From: a virus
IMG/VR virus record: IMGVR_UViG_3300028800_000062
Coordinates: 32,001-96,000 of that record
Reading direction: 5' to 3' (one strand)
Length of the DNA stretch: 64,000 nucleotides
The translations under genes were made by a program, and so were the position numbers. The notes under the pieces are model-generated. The model saw only the letters and a list, made by a program, of their open reading frames with translations, searched no databases and was not told the origin of the DNA. Shown in pieces: positions 1 through 61,689 of this stretch (positions are counted from its first letter, which is position 1; each line of letters starts with the position of its first letter).

Positions 1-948
1 ACCTTCTGTGGACCGGGCAAGTCATTCCCGGTTCCCGACTGCGCGCACGTCACCGCGGCCCGCCGGTTGATTGGCAAAGCCAAGGTCAGCGAAGACGTCA
101 AGAAGCGCATTCTTTCCTGCGTGGCGGGCAAGGCCAAATCCATGTCCTGCTCCGCAGAAGAGAAGAAGGACCGGATCACCGACAACCCGGCATTCAAAAC
201 GCTCACCGACCACTGGGTGGATGGGCCGGACGACGGCAAGAAGCCGTTTACGCACTCCGCACAGATGTTGCAGCATATCGATGACACCCACATGGTGCAT
301 GAGGGTCTCGAAGAGCATGAACGGCCGCACTTCCGGGAGGCTCTCTACTGCCTGCAGAACCTGTGGTCCGCCAGCGGCTCGATCGATCATATCAAGCAGC
401 ACATCGCCAATCGGGGCGAAACCATTATTCCGGCCAAGGATCTCGAACAGCTGCATGAGGCCATCGGCCGCTATGAGCTGGACCTGAAAGAGCAGAAGGC
501 AGAGATTGACCTGCTCACTCAGGCGCAGAAGGCCATCATCACCGACTCCAAGCAGAACATCGCGCGGATCGTGGTATTGAGCAGCATGCTGCTGAAGGAA
601 CAAGGTTTTGAGGGACTGGACACCGCCCAAATCCAAACTGAGATTGATGCCCGGTCCAAGCGTAGTCTGGACAGCCTGAAAGATTCCCTGGACGATCTGC
701 AGAAGAAGCTCCAGGGTGATCCGGCGCCCTCCGGTAAGAAACAGGATGATGTTCCGGTCCGGCAGGTCAGTGACAAGGCCCAAGTAGCGGATCCGCCCGT
801 CACCACCGAAGCCCCCTCTCAGGACAGCGAGACTGAGGAACCCCAGGTGAACGCGAATATGCTGCGAGCCCTTTCCCCGCGTGAACGCACCCGCGTAATG
901 CTCCGGGAAAGATCCCGCCGGCTGAAACAGTCGCTGGGAACGAACTAA
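1..948 (+). CDS. Prohead scaffold/protease-associated protein, C-terminal part (5' truncated by window)
   Basis: Frame is open from base 1 (TFCGPGKSFPVPDCAHVTAARRLIGKAK...), followed by a long coiled coil; lies two genes upstream of the capsid gene. Function inferred from position and coiled coil. Confidence 0.6.
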   Translation, partial: TFCGPGKSFPVPDCAHVTAARRLIGKAKVSEDVKKRILSCVAGKAKSMSCSAEEKKDRITDNPAFKTLTDHWVDGPDDGKKPFTHSAQMLQHIDDTHMVHEGLEEHERPHFREALYCLQNLWSASGSIDHIKQHIANRGETIIPAKDLEQLHEAIGRYELDLKEQKAEIDLLTQAQKAIITDSKQNIARIVVLSSMLLKEQGFEGLDTAQIQTEIDARSKRSLDSLKDSLDDLQKKLQGDPAPSGKKQDDVPVRQVSDKAQVADPPVTTEAPSQDSETEEPQVNANMLRALSPRERTRVMLRERSRRLKQSLGTN

Positions 949-971
949 CAGTTAGTTAGGAGATAAGAGTT

Positions 972-2149: not shown

Positions 2150-2365
2150 ATGATGACTCTCCGATCTGCGGTGATTAAAGGCCGTGCCCGCTTTACTCCG
2201 GATGGACTGCGCTGCGCGAATCCCCGGGAAGCGGACGAAGAGCGGTTGTGCAACAAGTTGATCTGCAAGCCAAATGATGCAGGTCAGACGGCCGGCAAGT
2301 TTCGTTGCGATCGCTGCAAGCAGGACATTGAAGTTGCTTTGGTCCTGCCGCGGCGCGTAGCTTAG
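2150..2365 (+). CDS. Mu Com-like zinc-finger protein (putative translational regulator)
   Basis: 71 aa with RC..(insertion)..CNKLI...FRCDRC, matching the Com-family pattern RCxxCNKLL...KCPRC; immediately upstream of the capsid gene. Confidence 0.6.
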   Translation: MMTLRSAVIKGRARFTPDGLRCANPREADEERLCNKLICKPNDAGQTAGKFRCDRCKQDIEVALVLPRRVA

Positions 2366-2390
2366 AGCAGTATTCAAACTAGAGGCTCAG

Positions 2391-2431
2391 TGGAAGCCCT
2401 AAGTCCTTTTCAAAGGAGTTAGGTACTTCCA
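2391..2431 (+). promoter_or_regulatory. SD-sequestering hairpin at the capsid translation start
   Basis: tggaag/cttcca, cctaa/ttagg and tcctt/aagga pair around a ttca loop, burying the SD (aaggag) and the A of ATG 2431. Confidence 0.7.
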
Positions 2432-3792
2432 TGGGTAAAAAAGCAGTCAAGAAAACGCAAGATTGGGCCGTCCAGCTGGACAAAGATGACCTGATTAACT
2501 TAAACCTGCTCGATACGGTCTTCCGTACCAACGGATTCGATCCGGACGGCGAGCACATGATCATGAAGGACGCGATGGATGTTCCCAACGCCGCGTTCCT
2601 GATTCCGCGTGTGCTAACCCAATTCGTGCAGGAAGGTGTGGAACCCCTGCTAGTCGGTGCCAACCTGTTGCAGCGGATTGAGTACATCCCCGGTATGCAG
2701 ACGGTCTTCCCGGCCATCGATGTGTTGAACGCGCGAGAAGTGGGCGACGGCATGGGCCTCCCCATCTTCAACATCAACATCGGCGGCGGCCAGACTTACG
2801 GCGTGTCCGTCAAACGGCACGGCCTGATGCTGCGCATCGCGGAGCGCTTTGTTGACCAGAGTTCCTACCCGTGGCTCAACTGGTGGGTCAAGCTCGCTGG
2901 TCAAGCCCTGGCGCGCCACAAGGAAGAGTACATCTTCAACTGGATCACCTCTTTGGGCACGTTGGTCTTCGATAACTCCACCGCCGCCCGCACCACCAAC
3001 GGCGCCGGTCTGACCACCAGTGGCCAGGCGCAACCTATCAAGGGCGTCACCACCGGCCGCAACATCATGGGTGTTTTCAACGGCTCCATGACCATGGACG
3101 ACGTCTATGATCTGTACGCCACCACGCTGACTCAGGGCTTCATTCCCGACACCCTGTTAGTGCACCCAATGACCTATCTCATGTGGGTCAAGGACCCGGT
3201 TATGAGAGAATTTGCAATCCAAGCCGGCGGTGGAAACTTCTTCCAGGCCTTTACAGGCAACGCTGCGGCTAAGGCATTCGAAGGGCAGTACAACTTCTTC
3301 GGCCTCGGCCAGGGTCTTGGACAAACCGGTAAGTTCGAAAACGGTACGCAGCTCGGCACCGGGCAGACCGGGACCGCACAGGGACTGCCGCAAAACCAGA
3401 CCTCCGCTCCCACGCTGCTCAACTATTTGGGCCTCAACTTCACCATCCTGGTGTCGCCGTTTGTGCGCTTCGACCCGCTCGGCCGCAATACGGACATCAT
3501 GCTGTTTGACCGCCGCAACCTGGGCGCCCTGATCGTCGACGAAGATCCGCACGTCAACTCATTCAACGATCCGCACTACAACCTCCGCAACATCGGTGTG
3601 GAGGAGACGTACGGCTTCGGCATTTTGAATGAAGGACAGGCCATCACCGTAGCCAAGAACGTGGCCATCCGCCCGAACGAGTTTGTCCTGCCGGCCCGCG
3701 CCGTGATGAATATCAGCGAAGCAGGCAGCACGTTCCAACAGCTCAGCACCATCAACCAGTTCGGTACCAATCCGACCTCGGTATTGTCGTAA
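2431..3792 (+). CDS. Major capsid protein (HK97-fold, large-phage type)
   Basis: 453 aa; segments LIPRVLTQFVQEGVEP, KRHGLMLRIAERF, GQALARHKEE, PDTLLVHP, EETYGFGILNEGQAI are typical of large-phage capsid proteins; strong SD and downstream terminator. Confidence 0.9.
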   Translation: MGKKAVKKTQDWAVQLDKDDLINLNLLDTVFRTNGFDPDGEHMIMKDAMDVPNAAFLIPRVLTQFVQEGVEPLLVGANLLQRIEYIPGMQTVFPAIDVLNAREVGDGMGLPIFNINIGGGQTYGVSVKRHGLMLRIAERFVDQSSYPWLNWWVKLAGQALARHKEEYIFNWITSLGTLVFDNSTAARTTNGAGLTTSGQAQPIKGVTTGRNIMGVFNGSMTMDDVYDLYATTLTQGFIPDTLLVHPMTYLMWVKDPVMREFAIQAGGGNFFQAFTGNAAAKAFEGQYNFFGLGQGLGQTGKFENGTQLGTGQTGTAQGLPQNQTSAPTLLNYLGLNFTILVSPFVRFDPLGRNTDIMLFDRRNLGALIVDEDPHVNSFNDPHYNLRNIGVEETYGFGILNEGQAITVAKNVAIRPNEFVLPARAVMNISEAGSTFQQLSTINQFGTNPTSVLS

Positions 3793-3800
3793 TCCTACCA

Positions 3801-3843
3801 CGGAGGCGGCGGTTTAGCGACTGCCGCCTCCGGTTCACTTTTC
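3801..3843 (+). terminator. Intrinsic terminator after the capsid gene
   Basis: 13-bp stem cggaggcggcggt/actgccgcctccg followed by gttcactttt. Confidence 0.8.
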
Positions 3844-16659: not shown

Positions 16660-16677
16660 CTATACTAGCAAAGGGTG
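16660..16677 (+). promoter_or_regulatory. CTATACTAGCAA promoter-like motif (copy 1)
   Basis: ctatactagcaaagggtg, 17/18 identical to 45311..45328; intergenic, directly before an in-frame GTG. Confidence 0.55.
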
Positions 16678-17342
16678 TGACAGGTGAAATATTGATTGGG
16701 GGTACGGCTGCTTTTGCGGTGCCGCCCAAGATGTCCAGTCGAGCGCCCCTGGACCACTTATCACTGTATCAGGCATTTGTCGACTGTTTCAGCCTGGCAG
16801 CCCAGACCTTGGAGTGGCCTTCCCAGAACCAGCCCAAGTTGGTGGAGGAGTATCCGGCGCAGCGCGAGGGTGAGTTTGACACGAGTTTCGACATTATCCT
16901 GATGAGCCTGGCGGGCAGCCATGTATCGTCCACCAGCAACAGACGAGACCAGCGGCCCAAGGGAATTGAGGAAGTTTCCCGCATCCCCTACCCGGGGTTA
17001 ACGGGATACCTGCAGGTGCGCAGCAAGTGGGAGGAGGACGTTCAGGTACGTTTCGACGTGCTGTCCAAGTCCAACCGCAAAGCCAATGAGTTGGCTATGT
17101 GGTGGCATCGCACCCTGGTGGTGTACGCGCAAAGCCTGAAGTTCTTTATGGCGCGCGGCGTGAACGATTTCCGGTTCGCTGAACGGCTGGCGGACCAGAC
17201 AACAAAGGAATATGGCCAGACATTGTACTGCAGGCCGCTGCTTTATACGTTGCGGCTGGAACTGGACATCCTGACCAAGTGCAAGACCTTGGACCAGATT
17301 AATATGCGTCTGGGATCCTCCAAGATTGAAATCGACGGTTAG
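16677..17342 (+). CDS. Putative tail completion/terminator protein
   Basis: Immediately upstream of the sheath; VRFDVLSKSNRKANELA...RPLLYTLRLE pattern. Start uncertain (GTG 16677 preferred over 16620). Confidence 0.55.
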   Translation: MTGEILIGGTAAFAVPPKMSSRAPLDHLSLYQAFVDCFSLAAQTLEWPSQNQPKLVEEYPAQREGEFDTSFDIILMSLAGSHVSSTSNRRDQRPKGIEEVSRIPYPGLTGYLQVRSKWEEDVQVRFDVLSKSNRKANELAMWWHRTLVVYAQSLKFFMARGVNDFRFAERLADQTTKEYGQTLYCRPLLYTLRLELDILTKCKTLDQINMRLGSSKIEIDG

Positions 17343-17366
17343 AAGCCGCACTCGAATGGGAGATCG

Positions 17367-19268
17367 GTGGAAATGAGTTACAACTACCTACCTGGAATGC
17401 AGGTTATCACCAACGACGGCGGCTTGTACAAGAGAACAAACCCCGTTACAAAGAGTGTTCTGGTGTTCGGTACTTCCGGCCAGGGCATCGCCGACCAGGC
17501 TTATCAGGTTCTCGACCAGAACCAGGCAGCCTTGGAATACGGATTTGCCGGCACTTTGATCCGAGGCATGTCGGAGTCTGCGGCCGGCGGCAGCGACAAT
17601 CTGTACCTGTACCGTATCGGTACCGCGCCCGCCGTTCTTAAAGGTGTCGGAACCTCCACGGCCACAACCGCCAATCTGGGCCTGTCCCTGTCCTTCGGCG
17701 ACCGGGACGTGGACACCGCTACCAAGTACACCATGTATTATGCGGCCGGCATCCTCTATGTGTGGAACAACGGCCAGTTGGTGTATGCCAATGACACCGG
17801 CGTGCAGGTAGTCGATACCGGCGACGTCACGGTGACCATGTTGGACGTCACCATGCCTACCGGCGGCGCCGCCATCGGTACGGCTAAGACTTTGGCCGGT
17901 TCAGTGGCCATCGGTCAGGCGCCTACGGCGGCTGTAACGGATACGCATGACACGGCTCCCGTCTACACTGACGCCATCACAGGGCTGAACCTGACTACCC
18001 GTCAGTTGTATATCGCCCTCGAGAAAGCCATGGACATCATGGCTGGCTTCGTGGTGCAACAGGTCTATATTCCCAATACCGTGTTGGACGCGCCGAACGT
18101 GGCGTTCTACGTGTCTTCGGATCCTACCACCACGCAGCACAATCCGGCGACCAATCCCAATGCGCTCGACTGGCTCAAGACCACTACCGACGCGGTGGGT
18201 AACGAGACCTACCGGTGGGCCAGTGAACTGGTGGATTCCAACGGGCAGATTGTCACTGCGCACACCGCTTGGACTTCCGGCAGCGCCCGCCAGGCGGACG
18301 GCTTCTATGAGGTCAACTTCGGCTATCAGCTGGCCCGGTATTGTTCTCAGGCCAGCGAGACGCAGCAAGGTAACGGCGTATGCGTCGGCTTCATCGGCAT
18401 GAACGGACCGGCCGCGAGTTCCTCTGGTCTGCTGAACTTTTCCACAGTCAACGTGCGCTCCTGGCTGGGCGCCCTGCCGACTTACGATCCTAATAGCGGC
18501 ACAGTGCTCGCTTCTGGCAAAGGCGTACTGGGCAACCCGTATATGGCAGGCTGCGGTTCGGCGCAATTGAACCTGCTGTGCATCGACAAGGCCACCGGCC
18601 GCAGCAAGGGTTTCTTTGAGAATTTGGCTGAAGAGTATGACGGCGGCGCTTCGCTCGATGAGAACCAAATGCCCATCGATATCGGGGCCTACCTGGTGGT
18701 TTGCGGAGACTGGGCCAGCTTGACCAATTCTTACGGCTCAGGCTACGTGGGCAACATCGCCGGCCTGGTGTGCGGATTTGTAGCGCAGCTCGATGAGAAG
18801 GAAAGCACCACCAACAAGCCGGTGAAGGCGGTAGCTCAGCTGTACCATCCGACTCTGCCGCAACTAGACGCTGCTGCCGAAGTGGGCATCCATCTTCTGC
18901 GGTATCGCAGCACCGTGGACCTGCCCCGACTGGATCACGGGCAAACGGCGGCCACTTTGAATTCGGACTTCTGCGAAATCGTGCGGGTGCGGATCAAAGG
19001 TAAGGTCATCGTTGAGGTTTTCGACGCTGCAGATCCTTTCATTGGCAGCTCTTCGACCGATGGTATGCAACTGTTGAGTCTCCAAACGGCGCTCAACAGC
19101 CGCCTCAGCGTGTTACGCAAAGCGGGTTATATCGGCGCCAACTTCAGCATCTCCATCCAAGCCACGCAGGCACAGATGACTGCTGGACAATGCGACCTGT
19201 ATCTCACGTATTACAGCCCCGACGAAGTCAAGAAGATTACGGTTCACGTCGGCCTGTCACGGCAGTAA
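17367..19268 (+). CDS. Contractile tail sheath protein
   Basis: 633 aa; N-terminal YLPGMQV..DGGL...SVLVFGTS, LYRIG; C-terminal ESTTNK, IVRVRI...DPFIG, EVKKITVHVGL; followed by the tube gene. Start could be ATG 17373. Confidence 0.88.
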   Translation: MEMSYNYLPGMQVITNDGGLYKRTNPVTKSVLVFGTSGQGIADQAYQVLDQNQAALEYGFAGTLIRGMSESAAGGSDNLYLYRIGTAPAVLKGVGTSTATTANLGLSLSFGDRDVDTATKYTMYYAAGILYVWNNGQLVYANDTGVQVVDTGDVTVTMLDVTMPTGGAAIGTAKTLAGSVAIGQAPTAAVTDTHDTAPVYTDAITGLNLTTRQLYIALEKAMDIMAGFVVQQVYIPNTVLDAPNVAFYVSSDPTTTQHNPATNPNALDWLKTTTDAVGNETYRWASELVDSNGQIVTAHTAWTSGSARQADGFYEVNFGYQLARYCSQASETQQGNGVCVGFIGMNGPAASSSGLLNFSTVNVRSWLGALPTYDPNSGTVLASGKGVLGNPYMAGCGSAQLNLLCIDKATGRSKGFFENLAEEYDGGASLDENQMPIDIGAYLVVCGDWASLTNSYGSGYVGNIAGLVCGFVAQLDEKESTTNKPVKAVAQLYHPTLPQLDAAAEVGIHLLRYRSTVDLPRLDHGQTAATLNSDFCEIVRVRIKGKVIVEVFDAADPFIGSSSTDGMQLLSLQTALNSRLSVLRKAGYIGANFSISIQATQAQMTAGQCDLYLTYYSPDEVKKITVHVGLSRQ

Positions 19269-19279
19269 GTACGGTCTTT

Positions 19280-19320
19280 CCGGTCCGGGTGGAGGCAGCA
19301 ATCGTGCCCGCCCGGACTGG
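19280..19320 (+). promoter_or_regulatory. Strong intergenic hairpin between sheath and tube genes
   Basis: ccggtccgggtgg/ccgcccggactgg 13-bp stem with G-U pairs; no U-tract, so stabiliser, processing site or weak terminator. Confidence 0.5.
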
Positions 19321-19387
19321 TCCTGCCTAGCGTAATCTTGGCACAACTTTCATTCGCGAGGCCCTTAGGTCCGTTAAGGAGACTCAA

Positions 19388-20089
19388 ATGTCAACGACTC
19401 CAGGTCTAACGGATGCCATCGCGAACAGCACCAACAACACATTTTCCGGCAGCGACATCCGTGCATACATAGGCCCTGTCCCGTTCGGACAGATGCAGGC
19501 GATTTCTTATTCCATCAGCCGGGAAAAAGCTCCCGTCTATACCATGGGCAGCCCGGATCCTCGCAGCTTCTCGCGCAACAAGCGCGGTATCGCAGGCTCG
19601 CTGGTATGGATCCTGTTTGACCGGCACGCTCTGCTGGCTCTGGCCGCACAGCTTAGCGGTACCTTCCTCGCTAACCGCGATGACGTGAATCCGACATTCC
19701 TGTCGCCGATCGCGCCGAGCGGAGGTTATGTTTCGCCGCAGGTGTTCAATACCACGCTGGTGCGCAACGACGGTACTTTGCCGGCCGCAGTAGGCAGCGC
19801 CGCCGCCGCGCAACCCCTTCAGGATATGTCCCTGGCCGCTAACTTCAAAGTGGTGTCTGCACCCTGGTATTCGGATCAGATCCTGCCGTTTGATGTCACC
19901 ATGTCCGGCGTGAATGAGTATGGCGCCGCGATGGGGATGAAGATCTTCGGTGTCGAAATCCTGAATGAAGGCTACGGGGTGTCCGTGGATGACACGGTGA
20001 GTGAGATGCAGGCTACCTTCGTGGCCCGTTCCATCGAGCCGTGGCAGGCAGTGGCTACCAACCTGAACAGCTCATCCTGTCTGGTCTAA
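19388..20089 (+). CDS. Tail tube protein (major)
   Basis: FSGSDI...QAISYSISREKAPVYTMG...FSRNKRGIAGSL...DQILPFDV...GVEILNEG..SVDD; directly follows the sheath; strong SD. Confidence 0.8.
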   Translation: MSTTPGLTDAIANSTNNTFSGSDIRAYIGPVPFGQMQAISYSISREKAPVYTMGSPDPRSFSRNKRGIAGSLVWILFDRHALLALAAQLSGTFLANRDDVNPTFLSPIAPSGGYVSPQVFNTTLVRNDGTLPAAVGSAAAAQPLQDMSLAANFKVVSAPWYSDQILPFDVTMSGVNEYGAAMGMKIFGVEILNEGYGVSVDDTVSEMQATFVARSIEPWQAVATNLNSSSCLV

Positions 20090-20116: not shown

Positions 20117-21001
20117 ATGTCCTACACTAATCCGCCGGATCTGTTGACCGGGGGTTTGGGCGCCAGCGGCAATCCGTTAGACCCCGGCGGATCGCTGCCG
20201 GCTCCGTCTCAAATCCTCACCAACGGCCTGACGCCTCCATCTCCGACCCTCGAGGTCGGTCCCATGGAGAGCACCGGCCGGGACTTGAGTTCCAGCAGCA
20301 GCAGCCAGAGCCAATCTTCCGCACCGGCATCCGCCCCGTATTCCTCCTCTCCCTCGTCCGCCGACGCCGGTGTGCTGGGAGCCGCCCAGGCTCCCGCCTC
20401 CGGCACCAAACTCACCGACACCGCCATTGCCCAGATCGAGTCCGGCCAATATGTGTTCAGCGGCGCGGATATGAGGGCGTACCTGGAGCTGCCCGGCAAT
20501 AAGCTCCGGCAGCTGATCGAACTCACCACCGTTACGGTCTCCGTGCATCGCGAGAAGGCTCCCGTCAGGGCCTGTGGGTATATCGGAGCCAAAGGCTATG
20601 CCCGCGGCCGGCGGACGCTGGCCGGCACCATCATTCTCACGCAGTTCCAGGCCGACTTTATGCTGCGCTTTCTGGGGCAGACCAATGATAAGGATGAGAG
20701 CAAGGACACCCAGATCCTGAAAGTGGACCAGCTGCCGCCCTTCAATCTTTATCTCTATTTTGGCGACGAGTATGGCTGCCAGAGTTACCGGCACATCCTG
20801 GGCGTGGATATCGTCACGGATGGAACGGTGCATAGCGCACAGGATCTCTACAGCGAGCGGACTCTTTCTTATGTGGCCTCCGACTTTACGCCACTGCTCC
20901 CCATCAGCGCCGCCAGCACCGCGACGCCGACGGATCAGCGCCTGGCCGGAGCCGAGAAGACTCCCAAAGAAGCGGTGAATTCCACCATCACGTTCATTTG
21001 A
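20117..21001 (+). CDS. Tail tube-like paralogue (tube initiator/baseplate-proximal)
   Basis: FSGADM...TVSVHREKAPVRACG...RGRRTLAGT...DQLPPF aligns motif-by-motif with the tube protein; low-complexity N-terminus. Confidence 0.7.
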   Translation: MSYTNPPDLLTGGLGASGNPLDPGGSLPAPSQILTNGLTPPSPTLEVGPMESTGRDLSSSSSSQSQSSAPASAPYSSSPSSADAGVLGAAQAPASGTKLTDTAIAQIESGQYVFSGADMRAYLELPGNKLRQLIELTTVTVSVHREKAPVRACGYIGAKGYARGRRTLAGTIILTQFQADFMLRFLGQTNDKDESKDTQILKVDQLPPFNLYLYFGDEYGCQSYRHILGVDIVTDGTVHSAQDLYSERTLSYVASDFTPLLPISAASTATPTDQRLAGAEKTPKEAVNSTITFI

Positions 21002-22315: not shown

Positions 22316-22471
22316 ATGGATCCTAGAATTGCAGTAGCTTGCGTAGTAGCGGCCCTGTTTCTGACCGGCGTAGGCTATACCGTGGAAGGCGTCAAGCGCG
22401 CCGCGCACCACGTCTCCAAAGCCGGCCATGCCGTGGTCCACGTTTTGCACCATCCTAAACCCCGTTCTTGA
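22316..22471 (+). CDS. Small membrane protein with His-rich tail (not in ORF track)
   Basis: SD aggag at 22303; MDPRIAVACVVAALFLTGVGYTVEGVKRAAHHVSKAGHAVVHVLHHPKPRS, 51 aa. Confidence 0.65.
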   Translation: MDPRIAVACVVAALFLTGVGYTVEGVKRAAHHVSKAGHAVVHVLHHPKPRS

Positions 22472-22496
22472 CATCTAACACACTGTTAGTTATACT
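22468..22496 (+). promoter_or_regulatory. Sigma70-type promoter with palindromic spacer
   Basis: TTGACA (22468-22473), 17-nt spacer, TATACT (22491-22496); spacer contains ctaaca-cac-tgttag. Confidence 0.75.
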
Positions 22497-28300: not shown

Positions 28301-30336
28301 GAAACAACACCGGCTTTGGCCAGACGGTCTACTTCGAAGGCAGTCGGCAGTTGACCAGCTGGTCACGCAAGTACTATGACGAGCAGGTAGGCGCCGGCAT
28401 GGGCCCGGACGTAGGCCTGGACAGCACTGCAGAATACTCGGAGCCCTTCCGCAGGTTTATCCAACGGGACCTGAAAACCCTGCAGGCAAACGAGATTCGC
28501 AACCAGATGCCGCACTGGCTGCCGGGCGACGATTACATGACGGACTTCCGCACCGGGGATCCGTATACGAAGGTGGATAGCGGCGCTTCCCGCCTGCCAG
28601 GCCCAGGTTACGAGGCTCTGCATCCGGAACTGAAGGGTGTTCCCTTCGAACAGTATCCGGATCTCGAACGCTACAAGATTCTCTCCGATGTAGCACCCTG
28701 GAGCAAGGAGTGGTTCATCTACAACACCAAGTTGAATGCAGCCACCATGCAGGATCCGGAGAGGCGCATCGCCTATGAACAGGTCCGCGACCGCGCCCAG
28801 GCAATCAAGGATTCATCCGAAGAGTTCCAGCATCGGCGCTTCTCAGCTCCCGTCGAACGCCTGACAGGGGTGGTCAAGCGCGCCACGCCGGCGGGTATCG
28901 AGATGGAGGACGGCCGCCACGTCCAACTAAGCGCCTTGGGCATGCGCATGTCAGACCTCTCTTCCCTGGCCCTTGGCGAGAAGAATAACCTGACCCGGCA
29001 GCAGGCGGCCGCGGAAGCCGAGCAGAGACAACAGCGTCTCCTCGAACGACTGTCTGCACTGAATGGACAGAGCATTGAGATGGTGGTTCCTCAAGGCACC
29101 GGGGAACACACCCTGCGCAGCCGCGCGGTGGTCCTGGTAGACGGGCATAACCTGAACCGGGAACTGATCAAAGCCGGACTGGCTCGCGAGGATCCCAACC
29201 TGGCCGGCGCGGAATATCAGGAGATGAGCGGCCCGCTGGGAAAAACCCTGGGGCGACTGGGAGAGGCGGCCTCTTTTATGGGAGACCAGGCGGCCATCAA
29301 CCCGATGCGCTGGACCTGGGGTCATGAGCAGAACAAGTTCTGGGGTAGTCGCGAACCCCTTGAAAAGTATACTTACAACGAACTGTACGGCGCCCGCATG
29401 CAGCATTGGGAGACGCCTTTGAAGAGTTTCGCCAAGCCCTGGCTGAGGTCCCTGTCGCACAAGTTGACCAATAAGGTCGTGGCTCCCCAGCAAGTGCAGG
29501 AACGACGGGACTTTGATATGCTTACCGACGTCCTAGAATACCTGCGCGCCACTACCCGCGGATATACTAACAAGAAGAGCAGGACAGCTATCGGAGCTGA
29601 TGTACTGGCGGACCCCGCCTATCTCCGATCCACACTTTCCGGGCGGGATAAGTACTACTTTCCAGAGTTCCTGCGGGAGACCCGGGACGAGGAACGCAGT
29701 AAGATCCTCGAGGCCGTGCCGGAAGATTTCGCACGCATCCTGCAAGGACAGTGGGTCAAGCAGGATATCGAAGTAGCCCGCGCCGCACATCAGCCGGTGC
29801 CTGAGAAAGTGACCGAAGGCGGTCGCCTACTAACCATGGATGATCTGCAGGCCTATCAAAAGGCCGAGAAGAGTCACGAAACCAAGTTGGACTACGGAAA
29901 CTGGCTGCGTTCGCGCGAAATCGCCGGCTTCTTCTCCCGGAAGAACGTCCGGTTGCCGGAGGATCCGGATTCCCCCGTGTACGCCGAGAACATTGATTAC
30001 GAGGATGTCAAAGCCAAGATCATTCAGGAAGAAGGCCTAGACTACCACGATTTCAATATCTTCGACGACCGCGCGGCGACACTGTGGCGCAAACCTTACC
30101 TGGACGGCGCCGTACGGGAACTGACTGAGGGGAACAACAAATCCGTGGAAGACCTACGCCAGGCTGTGGAGAATATGATGCTGGCCGGCGGATCTAAGGA
30201 GTCGGAAGTGCGGATCACGTCCCTCAGTTCCCGCAAGCAGCGCCAGAACCTGAAAATACGAGTGGAAGAACAACCGGATGAAGACATCCTGCGGGATGTG
30301 CGTCGGAATCCGGAGGCTTACCTGAATCAGAACTAG
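25375..30336 (+). CDS. Giant tape-measure-position/ejected protein with N-terminal DEDDh 3'-5' exonuclease, membrane helices and degenerate SNase-like domain
   Basis: FFDVETGGL, GGWNVGYD, FHGAFFDT (ExoI/II/III); several hydrophobic Gly/Ala helices; VLVDGHNLNRELIKAGLA resembles the thermonuclease C-terminus. Confidence 0.7.
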   Translation: MHQFPSPDKIHFFDVETGGLPEHRAFNFSLPEFQKWSALKGDAYYKHPYATFHANSPLLQLYATGLPHFDPAKEDRLQHLTQGTAPHSSLIRLPDKPWTVENGDKVPLLISDWARDNGLVKASQSAQRSEEETLRLFFEDLEAKLALGEPVNLGGWNVGYDLSAIERATRRYASLEPYQGWLGRQISAGQVRVVEGFDVFGDTILKYAEHNAEFAKSNLRMFPSGKVASNLEELRKVPGWKLGNIIDAIGGSEAFHISAEAAKFHGAFFDTQITASAYTRLWEAQASVREIQPGEDFAAAFRQAFTEAGLHPASVSSEDWMSRIFQRSGWQREFQRASKEGARDAGLAFEAVRSPSKVLIGAAVLGGMAIATNLAFGKRKDRQTQITGLDDLGLAAEQRHALTPFGSGWQGLDDPSPVNLSTLAIAGGTYGAFRYYTRNYPRSAVKVFSAAERRFPRQTLNYFGFSQFASSFLPTKLDVEAAQLVNNGSLTALGEHFQRLLGADLNLAQLATEGLHFERTGKSAYMHLAGTDRSVRFLGYDPATQKSGSRWAGASARWKAPINEPDRYLPNVVAGDTWAARWKSSWKQHVLSQTPINPKYGVEAEGLRFQPVFAEQEGHLLANLHQKVGITALELAEQPQKLFARIGLGLKNNSWNSAGGLVGKLLLKRALPIAAGLGALDYADYLTGHRLSAGVLGIGPKANVARAELTDRVPGARRTTDWYQRHIPGSQWGPLALPLTGMVTGELVEMGYEALTGIKLAGKASKFGRKAGLLAMLPFIPGMLGSRKSARELRDIYSGEQPVPVRSGRWWWLNQTPWGGGRITGYRPHWYARMKSRPERVALYGSEKEYWRHHPVLHPLNWLKNPYQLEEATYQDRPYPITSPAFSNIPLIGPVLAATLGRLVKPPKRMHESEWNGDDYTLFSPRVEPRGPAGLAPAHPREEFGLSDVVNRQTEQAAEFTGLSGFLAKTVLNKARNNTGFGQTVYFEGSRQLTSWSRKYYDEQVGAGMGPDVGLDSTAEYSEPFRRFIQRDLKTLQANEIRNQMPHWLPGDDYMTDFRTGDPYTKVDSGASRLPGPGYEALHPELKGVPFEQYPDLERYKILSDVAPWSKEWFIYNTKLNAATMQDPERRIAYEQVRDRAQAIKDSSEEFQHRRFSAPVERLTGVVKRATPAGIEMEDGRHVQLSALGMRMSDLSSLALGEKNNLTRQQAAAEAEQRQQRLLERLSALNGQSIEMVVPQGTGEHTLRSRAVVLVDGHNLNRELIKAGLAREDPNLAGAEYQEMSGPLGKTLGRLGEAASFMGDQAAINPMRWTWGHEQNKFWGSREPLEKYTYNELYGARMQHWETPLKSFAKPWLRSLSHKLTNKVVAPQQVQERRDFDMLTDVLEYLRATTRGYTNKKSRTAIGADVLADPAYLRSTLSGRDKYYFPEFLRETRDEERSKILEAVPEDFARILQGQWVKQDIEVARAAHQPVPEKVTEGGRLLTMDDLQAYQKAEKSHETKLDYGNWLRSREIAGFFSRKNVRLPEDPDSPVYAENIDYEDVKAKIIQEEGLDYHDFNIFDDRAATLWRKPYLDGAVRELTEGNNKSVEDLRQAVENMMLAGGSKESEVRITSLSSRKQRQNLKIRVEEQPDEDILRDVRRNPEAYLNQN

Positions 30337-45310: not shown

Positions 45311-45328
45311 CTATACTAGCAATGGGTG
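45311..45328 (+). promoter_or_regulatory. CTATACTAGCAA promoter-like motif (copy 2)
   Basis: ctatactagcaatgggtg in the 22-nt gap before GTG 45330. Confidence 0.55.
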
Positions 45329-54300: not shown

Positions 54301-55329
54301 AGTCACCCGAATGCGCCGGGAAACCTGGCTCCAGCCAACGAGCAGATCCGCGCATTCGACAACGTCCCTCTACAGGGCGGCCAGAATGAACCGACCTGGG
54401 TGAGTATTTCCGGGCAACTCTATACCGCGGCGCCGGCATCCAATCTGGACGCTGACGATCCTTTTGGTTACGGATCCATTATAGCCATGAACCGTAAATT
54501 GTATGCCCAGGGAGCCAGCTGTGGACCCCATCCGCTGACGGATATAAGCGGACCGGCATCGAGTATTTCGACCTCTACTGCCAGCTCCTACACTTATTGC
54601 TTCGCGCGCACCGCGGGCGAATGTTATTCCGGTAGTTCGGTGGGTCAAGTCTATGTGAACTGCCCGGGAGTGACAGCAGTTACCTGTCAAGGTTCTGGGA
54701 TTCACGGCGGGGCGCCCTTCGGGGCCGGTGCGGATATTTGCCTGGGCAATATCAACAATACGGCCAATGCGGTCCGTCAGTTCACATTGGACCGGACGGA
54801 CATGGCCGGATTGCGCAGCCGCACCGTGGTTGCCGCCACGGCGCGCACCCGCATGGTGTACGGGTTCGAGAACAATGAGTTAGTGCCGGACAACTCCTGG
54901 CTGTTGTACCGCTCGGATTGGCTGGACTTTCAGCGCGCGGAGATGTGGGCGGCTAAGCTGCCGCCGTATCCGCCTGTCGATTCGGTGACGCGCAATACCT
55001 TCGTGCCTGTGACGGTCAGCCTGAGACCGGCTGCCGGCCTGCAGGTCAACAACGCCATCGTCGAGTTTGGGTATCAGGAATATGGGAATACGCTGCTCAA
55101 CTGTACTACGCGTAACGATATCTGCGTGTCCGCATCGAACGTCAGGATTTCCGGTACGCAACCGTTTTCCTTCATCTCTGAAAACCCGGCCGGGTTGGCC
55201 TGCGCCACCGGCTGCACTCTCGTGATTCCGGCCCTTTCGCAGAGAGTCCTGTATTACCGGGTCGTGTATCGTAGTCTAACTAACAGTGTGTTGTACACGG
55301 GTCCACTGACGTCAGTGGTGGTTCCGTAA
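51367..55329 (+). CDS. Large Cys-rich secreted-type beta protein (adhesin or enzyme, unknown)
   Basis: Start ATG 51367 (MKILVLLTICACSGWA); about 1320 aa, many closely spaced Cys pairs, ATGA-coupled. Confidence 0.65.
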   Translation: MKILVLLTICACSGWAAITGFQVQGTTSTQVLVSYKAPDANACTIQVSQSASLTPLALDVDPATFANSNLDLSRPSTVTSGMSRTLLIGQRTVQYATAGTYSGVRHFSRALQAYTPYFGMITCPSTGDTYNFTFSTGNIPLGMSYGDPLPADPADPGNQPWPEAVGGLSPESFIDPFTGTYLTRLGLRSNNFGYWGSFPFGSAFNQGQFPCDSAGPWTNPCGTIVTGGAGSVTVLNSQAPLIIRPPLAGGNAFNGGYGSNNYGSMWTLDQFAVSLTGLGSSTTSAFRVLDVCLSLNGGASCANSAQQITMGQTSSVQKAGQYNTTQYGVIPWLLDTKPRLNVQEASPHSGAATVSGNTVTWVSGNLFSLYWVTGGNGTVRLSTVSSSDACATPPNTTSSTEYTILGMPDGNHLTVSGTPPAGSVYWCADNFAVMVWRDQAPSDGSSITLTAASMAAIESTSPTYPDNGADHACFNKLVQGGYFCLYGGLYWINPQTGASAYYGYMTAPSNNQSGQAITNPWHTIGIIPASESANIDQSQNVLTFYTTAIDPTSATALVIQGVFNPTTIATPAAPYVNGSQIGSANVIGSTAYSVTYNNGLTFSNLTPQVSLNQGIVAQMATLDPTFKVSQIGSPWNCQAYGFSGSLFYLGCYTSYEDGPGWILAFSPGDGNPAHAGQAGGPQIVGAISTFNTPSNAPVTPGYVGMYGHGLHAVVEADSGWVQVNTHFLQPINTSNNTLPATGVDCSTYGLASGKQCTLLNINSYTHASVTSYEPYYASPSTPFTGAPGETRTAQIGDTACVAVSTSGSCSYTSSQELLTLVAKNYQGVQGAWVFQRNGYGVEKAIATGPITLWWAAIAANMPPGSAAAGSFSVYWNPVTGCAGSPDPHGNCMTTDTNETAGHGEWRNGGEAVTTNVPDWSVPIMGWGSVYQTTLGNVPGILSLNPTNVTPDVTPGINYVNDEPPFAGVYGHPFGFDAGSHPNAPGNLAPANEQIRAFDNVPLQGGQNEPTWVSISGQLYTAAPASNLDADDPFGYGSIIAMNRKLYAQGASCGPHPLTDISGPASSISTSTASSYTYCFARTAGECYSGSSVGQVYVNCPGVTAVTCQGSGIHGGAPFGAGADICLGNINNTANAVRQFTLDRTDMAGLRSRTVVAATARTRMVYGFENNELVPDNSWLLYRSDWLDFQRAEMWAAKLPPYPPVDSVTRNTFVPVTVSLRPAAGLQVNNAIVEFGYQEYGNTLLNCTTRNDICVSASNVRISGTQPFSFISENPAGLACATGCTLVIPALSQRVLYYRVVYRSLTNSVLYTGPLTSVVVP

Positions 55330-61674: not shown

Positions 61675-61689
61675 CAGTTGTTAGTATAG
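61672..61689 (-). promoter_or_regulatory. CTATACTAACAA promoter-like motif (copy 3)
   Basis: Minus strand reads ctatactaacaactggtg, ending in the GTG start of the 61674 gene. Confidence 0.5.

Follow-up and report, generated by a model that had tools for sequence, protein, structure and literature searches.

Could one small RNA-binding protein switch on the translation of virion genes that lie many kilobases (kb) apart on a phage genome? This question is raised by a 64,000-nucleotide (nt) stretch of viral DNA (hereafter the window; bases 32001-96000 of the 146,742-base-pair (bp) phage genome in record IMGVR_UViG_3300028800_000062), in which a gene for a small Com-like zinc-ribbon protein lies directly before the major capsid protein (MCP) gene and the tail sheath and tail tube genes follow further downstream. 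An initial annotation had proposed that a GA(A/G)GCC box and a hairpin over the Shine-Dalgarno (SD) sequence precede the capsid, sheath and tube genes alike, and that one activator, probably Com-like, switches on the three proteins together. Based on a comparison with related phages, we favour a smaller, two-target system, in which the capsid message would be the cis target of the Com-like protein and the tube message its trans target, although we place this reading just short of an even chance. Its tube protein marks the phage as a distant relative of the Bacillus phage 0305phi8-36 group.

In phage Mu, Com recognises 5'-GAG(N)2CC-3', mostly in the bipartite form NGAGNNCC(N)2-3GAGNNCCNN just before the SD, and the part that it reads, CC(N)2-3GAG, lies in a hairpin loop of six bases, in which an accessible GA is crucial (PMC6483171). 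The natural Mu site runs GAAUGCC-UGC-GAGCAUCC-CAC-GGAG, then 7 nt and GUG (PMC6483171; Mu sequence). In the tube leader studied here, the letters of GAGGCC (19358-19363) and of the SD AAGGAG were verified. The site in full reads GAGGCCC-U-UAGGUCC-GUU-AAGGAG. Of its two copies, which are separated by 1 nt, GAGGCCC matches GAGNNCC exactly and UAGGUCC departs from it at one base; 3 nt lie between the box and the SD. The boxes of the capsid leader read GAGGCUC-AGUG-GAAGCCC, and the homologous tube spot of L254 (84% tube and ~74% sheath identity) reads GAAGCCC-AGU-GAGGCCCC, then 7 nt and AGGAG. The proposed resemblance of the tube leader to the capsid leader holds at the level of letters, as GARGCCCTWAG occurs only twice in the 146.7-kb genome, in these two leaders. 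Plain local alignment, however, ranks the pair only 238th of 9045 leader pairs, and each of the two has better partners among the leaders of unrelated genes (136 genes were called crudely genome-wide, and 135 leaders were ranked).

The candidate regulator is a 71-amino-acid (aa) protein with four cysteines. Its gene precedes the MCP gene in every relative whose MCP identity is at least 56%, L207 excepted, and is absent from those distant lineages that were sampled via their capsid genes. A profile of the family (A7, 20 members) aligns to Mu Com in hhalign (94.8%, E 5e-8) over 29 columns that cover the zinc finger (CNKLL...C.RC), and on the strength of this profile match the protein is judged a homologue of the Mu translational activator. 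The Pfam Com model PF10122 gave a weak match in 2 of the 20 family members, the protein of this phage not being one of them, and sequence searches of Pfam, PHROGs and the PDB with the zinc-ribbon protein returned generic weak zinc-ribbon matches only.

The tube and capsid motif signal is visible only across many relatives and not within this genome. Non-redundant leaders of the clade that has the zinc-ribbon gene (22 tube, 26 capsid and 20 sheath leaders) were compared over the region -60 to -17 with 300 dinucleotide shuffles. GAR(N2-3)CC was present in 11 of the 22 tube leaders versus 3.9 +/- 1.6 after shuffling, and in 12 of the 26 capsid leaders versus 4.7 +/- 1.9; in neither case did any of the 300 shuffles reach the observed count (maxima of 9 and 10, respectively). 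Of the 20 sheath leaders, 1 had this motif. The strict form GAGNNCC was found in 4/22 tube leaders versus 1.2 (P = 0.01), in 4/26 capsid leaders versus 1.3 (P = 0.03) and in 0/20 sheath leaders. A comparison of tube with sheath leaders gave Fisher p = 0.0017. The reverse complement of the tube leaders contained no motif matches, and GARN2-3CC was first of 1536 patterns of the same form when tube and MCP leaders were taken together. Across the late regions of four genomes, in which 5-16% of leaders match as a base rate, the tube gene was the only orthologous group matched in three. Five further tube leaders were fetched after the motif had been fixed, and three of them were positive: L331, with GAGUUCC 2 nt before the SD, and L333 and L334, which belong to lineages already sampled. 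More distant relatives (<49% tube identity) carried the motif in 8 of 43 tube leaders.

A structural descriptor of the Mu type, GA-arm-[C...GA]-arm'-C, which recovers the Com site of Mu mom, matched 4 of the 26 capsid leaders (this phage, its closest relative G001 with 81% sheath identity, L163 and L164) versus 0.38 in shuffled leaders. The tube operator of L254, GA-AGCC-[CAGUGA]-GGCC-C, fits the same descriptor in full. From these leader comparisons, the Com-type box of the tube leader probably matters in itself, and the tube leader is a possible second target of the Com-like regulator, reached in trans.

The capsid leader serves as the reference for what such a unit can look like. Its SD and AUG are sequestered in a strong hairpin (-25.1 kcal/mol, z -4.8), a translation inhibition structure. 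In fold energy as well as in SD opening cost (17.9 kcal/mol versus a mean of 6.2 +/- 3.3) the leader stands first among the 135, and G001 retains this architecture apart from an altered apex. As a group, the capsid leaders of 26 lineages fold better than shuffles (mean z -0.79 +/- 0.25). When folded individually, most form two hairpins, one upstream and one enclosing the SD. In the capsid leaders of about 20 lineages (corresponding to window positions 2366-2436; loci L162-L222) the upstream hairpin is often GUCC/GGAC, the other is small and pairs the 3' half of the SD (NCCCU..AGGGN or UGCCU..AGGCA), and the zinc-ribbon gene almost always lies 5'. A covariance model of the two-hairpin element, built from a MAFFT seed (R1), recovers the capsid leaders of relatives and finds nothing in the window at E<=1. 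The alignment fitted to this model was not used as evidence, because its registration was poor and its pair counts did not surpass those of shuffles, and RNAalifold on the plain MAFFT alignment of capsid leaders returned no structure. The top-scoring partner of the capsid leader among all leaders belongs to an 80-aa gene on the minus strand that lies beyond the window (genome 124183-124425; ~92183-92425 on the scale of the window); an SD-sequestering hairpin in the leader of this gene, AUUCCUU..AAGGAGU, resembles the apex of the capsid-leader hairpin.

The tube leader, which is ~65 nt long in this phage and 40-70 nt across the clade, has no comparable inhibition structure on its SD or start codon. 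The dominant hairpin of its ensemble (-7.2 kcal/mol) leaves the SD free; in G001 both arms and the bulged A of this hairpin are retained, with the loop GGGCA. The pairing of ccttag with ttaagg over the tube SD that had been described does exist (-5.1 kcal/mol), but it is weaker than this SD-free competitor, and the opening cost of the SD lies at the genome median. The fold as a whole does not stand out from shuffles (z -0.6 to -1.0). For fold energy and SD opening cost the tube leader ranks 68 to 77 and the sheath leader 22 to 69 of 135, and the idea of a hairpin guarding the SD of both leaders had to be given up. CCTTAG and AAGTCC, which seemed recurrent in leaders by eye, were at chance in k-mer counts.

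Several of these and other observations weigh against a role for the Com-like protein at the tube gene. The tube SD costs 5.4 kcal/mol to open (rank 73-77 of 135), which would leave an activator nothing to open, and shuffled sequences fold just as well as the tube leaders of 15 lineages (mean z +0.26 +/- 0.24). Only one of the 22 tube leaders, that of L254, fits the Mu-type descriptor. The hairpin of this phage matches the descriptor in its 5' GA, both arms and 3' C, and its loop, CUUA, lacks the GA that is crucial for Com, so that binding to the tube leader in this particular phage is uncertain. G001 has near-misses only, GAGGCCG and CAGGCCC. The motif has only ~5 defined bases, the lineages of the clade sets are not fully independent, and within genomes no correlation between capsid box and tube box is visible. 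Exact k-mers (k = 5-7) in 15 tube and 26 capsid leaders gave none above shuffles for the tube. On the protein side, single-sequence Pfam searches with the 71-aa protein were negative or weak and did not place it in Zn_ribbon_Com. Finally, the genome itself shows no enrichment: GARGCC occurs 99 times in the window versus 91 +/- 11 expected, of the 60 copies on the plus strand of the late region 6 lie between genes (p = 0.2), and the enrichment in leaders genome-wide that a common regulon would predict came out at chance (9/135 versus 5.4 expected). The loose bipartite pattern has 217 matches genome-wide versus 186 expected and 5 in leaders versus 7.6 expected; as a single-genome search it proved too loose, with no excess in leaders, and was rejected.

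Much of this would suit an ordinary tube leader, in which the hairpin is a 5' stabiliser, an insulator or without any role, the likeness to the capsid leader and to Com sites is coincidental, and output comes from a strong, open SD at ideal spacing. The low alignment rank of the capsid-tube pair, the median fold energy and SD opening cost, the lack of within-genome enrichment and the loop without GA all point this way. AGGCCC is, in addition, generally enriched in intergenic GC-rich stems, the other leader copies of GAGGCC border on intergenic sequence rich in GC and in U, where by eye they make up the 3' arms of stems resembling terminators, and the three closest relatives have three different folds at the tube spot. 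We consider such an ordinary leader a serious possibility, if one clearly below even. It sits poorly, however, with the strand-specific clade enrichment of a motif taken from the literature, which is seen in tube leaders (11/22 versus ~4) and not in sheath leaders, with the first rank of that motif among 1536, and with the perfect Mu-type operator at the homologous spot of L254.

The sheath gene, by contrast with the tube gene, drops out of the proposed group. GAAGCC is present in its leader as described, and since the seventh base is G, GAAGCCG is not GARNNCC. The leader sequences are TAGAAGCCGCAC (this phage), TAGAAACCGCAT (G001) and TAAGTCCCGCAA (L254), with conserved flanks around a box that has become GAAACC in G001 and AGUCCC in L254. 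The stem gccg..ctc/gag..cggt over the sheath SD appears in the minimum-energy fold (z = 0.05 versus shuffles), and its CGGU arm is gone in the closest relative. As box and stem are not conserved and the Com-type motif occurs in 0-1 of 20 non-redundant clade sheath leaders, the sheath gene is, by this comparison, not a target of the Com-like protein. A model in which one activator opens SD hairpins of the capsid, sheath and tube genes and sets their stoichiometry can point to the GAAGCC and to the predicted stem over the sheath SD. It is contradicted for the sheath by the altered box, the lost stem and the near-absence of the motif, and for the tube by an SD that is not occluded, and we regard it as extremely improbable; the setting of stoichiometry for three proteins finds no support. 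What endures of the initial annotation is the Com-like activator, for which the published motif, the profile match and the clade enrichment speak at the tube and capsid genes and not at the sheath gene.

Judged by synteny, a TATACTARY promoter-like motif instead heads an operon from which the sheath is expressed as second gene; in four genomes with 40-57% GC this motif stands at the corresponding place, 712-789 nt 5' of the sheath ATG. The motif (CTATACTARCAA-like) lies 14-40 nt before the gene that precedes the sheath gene. Other copies in the window are at 29563-29571, within a large gene, at 45312-45320 and, on the minus strand, at 61688; they too lie at syntenic places in four genomes. In L228, L171, L173 and L174 a TATACTARY motif stands between the zinc-ribbon and capsid genes. 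Another family of elements, palindromes of the type CTAACTAACAGTGTGTTAG, is found at window positions 941-960, 22476-22494 and 55276-55294 and at ~9 more genome sites. The window has a single strong sigma-70-like promoter (22468-22496), and the copy at 22476-22494 separates its -35 (TTGACA) from its -10 (TATACT); from this position the copy looks like an operator for a repressor or activator.

A strong hairpin right after the sheath stop is conserved in position clade-wide. A U tract follows it in AT-rich members and in L254 (L254, G005, L253) and not in this phage, where the stem is strong but missing from the output of the terminator scan. The element most likely serves the sheath message, which it may end as a leaky terminator or stabilise at the 3' end. 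Alternatively to the two-target reading, the Com-type box of the tube leader could be read on DNA or during transcription, as part of a promoter or a binding site of an activator at which transcription starts anew beyond the post-sheath hairpin, with the same class of site before the capsid gene. A restart signal would make sense after a terminator-like hairpin found clade-wide, no TATACTA motif stands between sheath and tube in the four genomes, and the Com-type motif is orientation-specific. Yet a promoter would need more than five defined bases at variable distance (-26 to -46), a start site 5' of the SD would find hardly any room in the ~15 nt between the box and the tube ATG, and the post-sheath hairpin of this phage has no U tract. 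By eye, the capsid-leader hairpins show compensating changes (GUCC/GGAC, GUUC/GAAC, GAUC/GAUC, GGCU/AGCC) that would point to RNA structure, although the formal pair count was not above shuffles. We therefore consider a DNA-level signal improbable. Tandem direct repeats acting as a DNA operator were considered and kept only as a minor alternative. Sigma-70 promoter and terminator scans found nothing in the tube or sheath leader, and they did pick up the terminator behind the capsid gene and one promoter, at 22468. A TGGCAC in the tube leader that recalls sigma-54 sites lacks the GC at -12 and was discarded. Rfam gave no family in the window, with a chance snoRNA-like match only (E 0.26) in 17200-19500.

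If the two-target reading holds, the Com-like protein would bind the Com-type boxes in the capsid and tube late messages. The box and its enrichment, the homology of the protein to Com and the computed folds are results of the analysis; the binding, the sign and size of its effect and any part in setting stoichiometry are inferred. On the capsid message the protein would open the inhibitory hairpin, as Com does on mom: the second box, GAAGCCC, forms the 5' arm of the hairpin that buries SD and AUG, so that binding should free the start site. On the tube message it would act in trans, 17 kb away, and with a milder effect. The tube box overlaps both small alternative hairpins, and the protein could block the weak CCUUAG/UUAAGG pairing over the SD or, perhaps, protect, stabilise or position the 5' region. 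Extended to the whole clade of large soil phages, this would mean that a Com-type zinc finger regulates virion structural genes post-transcriptionally through GAR(N2-3)CC boxes, the capsid gene in cis and the tube gene in trans, which we hold to be conceivable but somewhat below an even chance.

Table 1 Positions of the genes and leader elements in the window
Feature	Position	Strand	Basis or remark
Four-Cys zinc-ribbon gene (71 aa), Com-like	2150-2365	+	directly 5' of capsid gene (65 nt to capsid gene)
Capsid-leader operator-like hairpin GA-GGCU-[CAGUGGA]-AGCC-C, boxes GAGGCUC and GAAGCCC	2382-2399	+	fits Mu-type descriptor
Strong hairpin burying capsid SD and AUG	2385-2436	+	reference element
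Major capsid gene	2431-3792	+	phrog_3922
Late-promoter-like motif TATACTAGC heading sheath operon	16661-16669	+	syntenic conservation
GAAGCC in sheath leader, overlapping upstream stop codon	17342-17347	+	judged a chance match, not a member
Tail sheath gene	17373-19268	+	ATG 17373; phrog_16991 tail sheath, E 9e-39
Post-sheath hairpin, 16 bp and GC-rich, no U tract	19280-19320	+	spacer fold
Tube-leader hairpin GCG.GGCC-[CUUA]-GGUC.CGU	19356-19374	+	dominant in ensemble, SD free
Bipartite Com-type box GAGGCCC-U-UAGGUCC	19358-19372	+	copy 1 exact, copy 2 one mismatch
Strong tube SD AAGGAG, 6 nt before ATG	19376-19381	+	opening cost at genome median
Tail tube gene	19388-20089	+	ATG 19388; tblastn to annotated tail tube proteins of 0305phi8-36-like phages
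Tube paralogue	20117-21001		3' of tube gene

The surroundings of these genes vary among relatives. Directly after the capsid gene, a 14-bp GC-rich hairpin with a U-rich tail (3801-3832) has the features of a textbook intrinsic terminator. The tube gene comes after the sheath gene in all relatives, and relatives carry differing extra open reading frames (ORFs) between the two, of which there are none in this phage: 311 aa in G001 (L001:2010-2945), 142 aa in L254 (L254:2514-2942) and 157 aa in G004 (L066:973-1446), the latter two being Gly/Ala-rich. At six tube loci of peat and soil relatives (L091, L093, L095, L098, L104 and L130) the protein match begins only at residue 33-39, and upstream of it lies a common, non-coding-looking stretch (ctcctg.tggcc...gtcaagc) with no in-frame N-terminal part; judged from this arrangement, an intron-like interruption of these tube genes could be present.

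Small phage proteins that act on several messages are known from other systems. RegA of phage T4 is a repressor of early genes, a small RNA-binding protein that recognises a short degenerate motif near several start sites. Regulons of this type share with the proposed system the combination of one small phage protein, a short motif and several messages. They differ in that RegA is unrelated in sequence, and that activation of late structural genes, with only two targets indicated, is likely here. FluMu, Pnm1 and related prophages offer a second comparison: their com-like genes precede genes for methyltransferases other than Mom, with putative Com sites at the 5' end of the methyltransferase gene (PMC3299994). 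As in the present phage, Com homologues are paired there with differing downstream genes (PMC3299994), while the target in those operons is a single, adjacent DNA-modification gene. In the literature searched, no Com homologue is described that acts on structural genes or has a second, distant target.

The closest parallel is the com-mom unit of phage Mu itself. In both systems a small four-Cys protein, here one that aligns to the Com zinc finger, is combined with a GAG(N)2CC-type box in two copies adjoining the SD, of which the second is inexact in the tube leader, with a spacer of 1 nt and not the typical 2-3 nt. For the capsid gene the parallel goes further, as the regulator gene lies directly 5' of its target and the operator hairpin is fused to the structure that buries SD and AUG, with the second box overlapping the inhibitory stem as in Mu. 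The differences concern both the protein and the targets. The first Cys pair is ~11-12 residues apart here and not CxxC, and the match to the Pfam Com model stays below cut-off. The targets would be virion structural genes, whereas Mu Com acts on a DNA-modification gene. The tube ATG lies ~17 kb downstream of the zinc-ribbon gene and would be reached in trans, its leader is without a real inhibition structure, and its hairpin loop has 4 nt and no GA. With loop GA, inhibition structure and adjacency of the regulator all missing, the tube leader is not classed as a com-mom-type unit. Com has so far been treated as a one-gene curiosity of Mu-like phages, the activator of an adjacent DNA-modification gene. 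Should the two-target reading prove true, it would widen the target range of the Com RNA-binding zinc finger and offer a simple, testable case of translational coordination of virion proteins in widespread, uncultured large phages.

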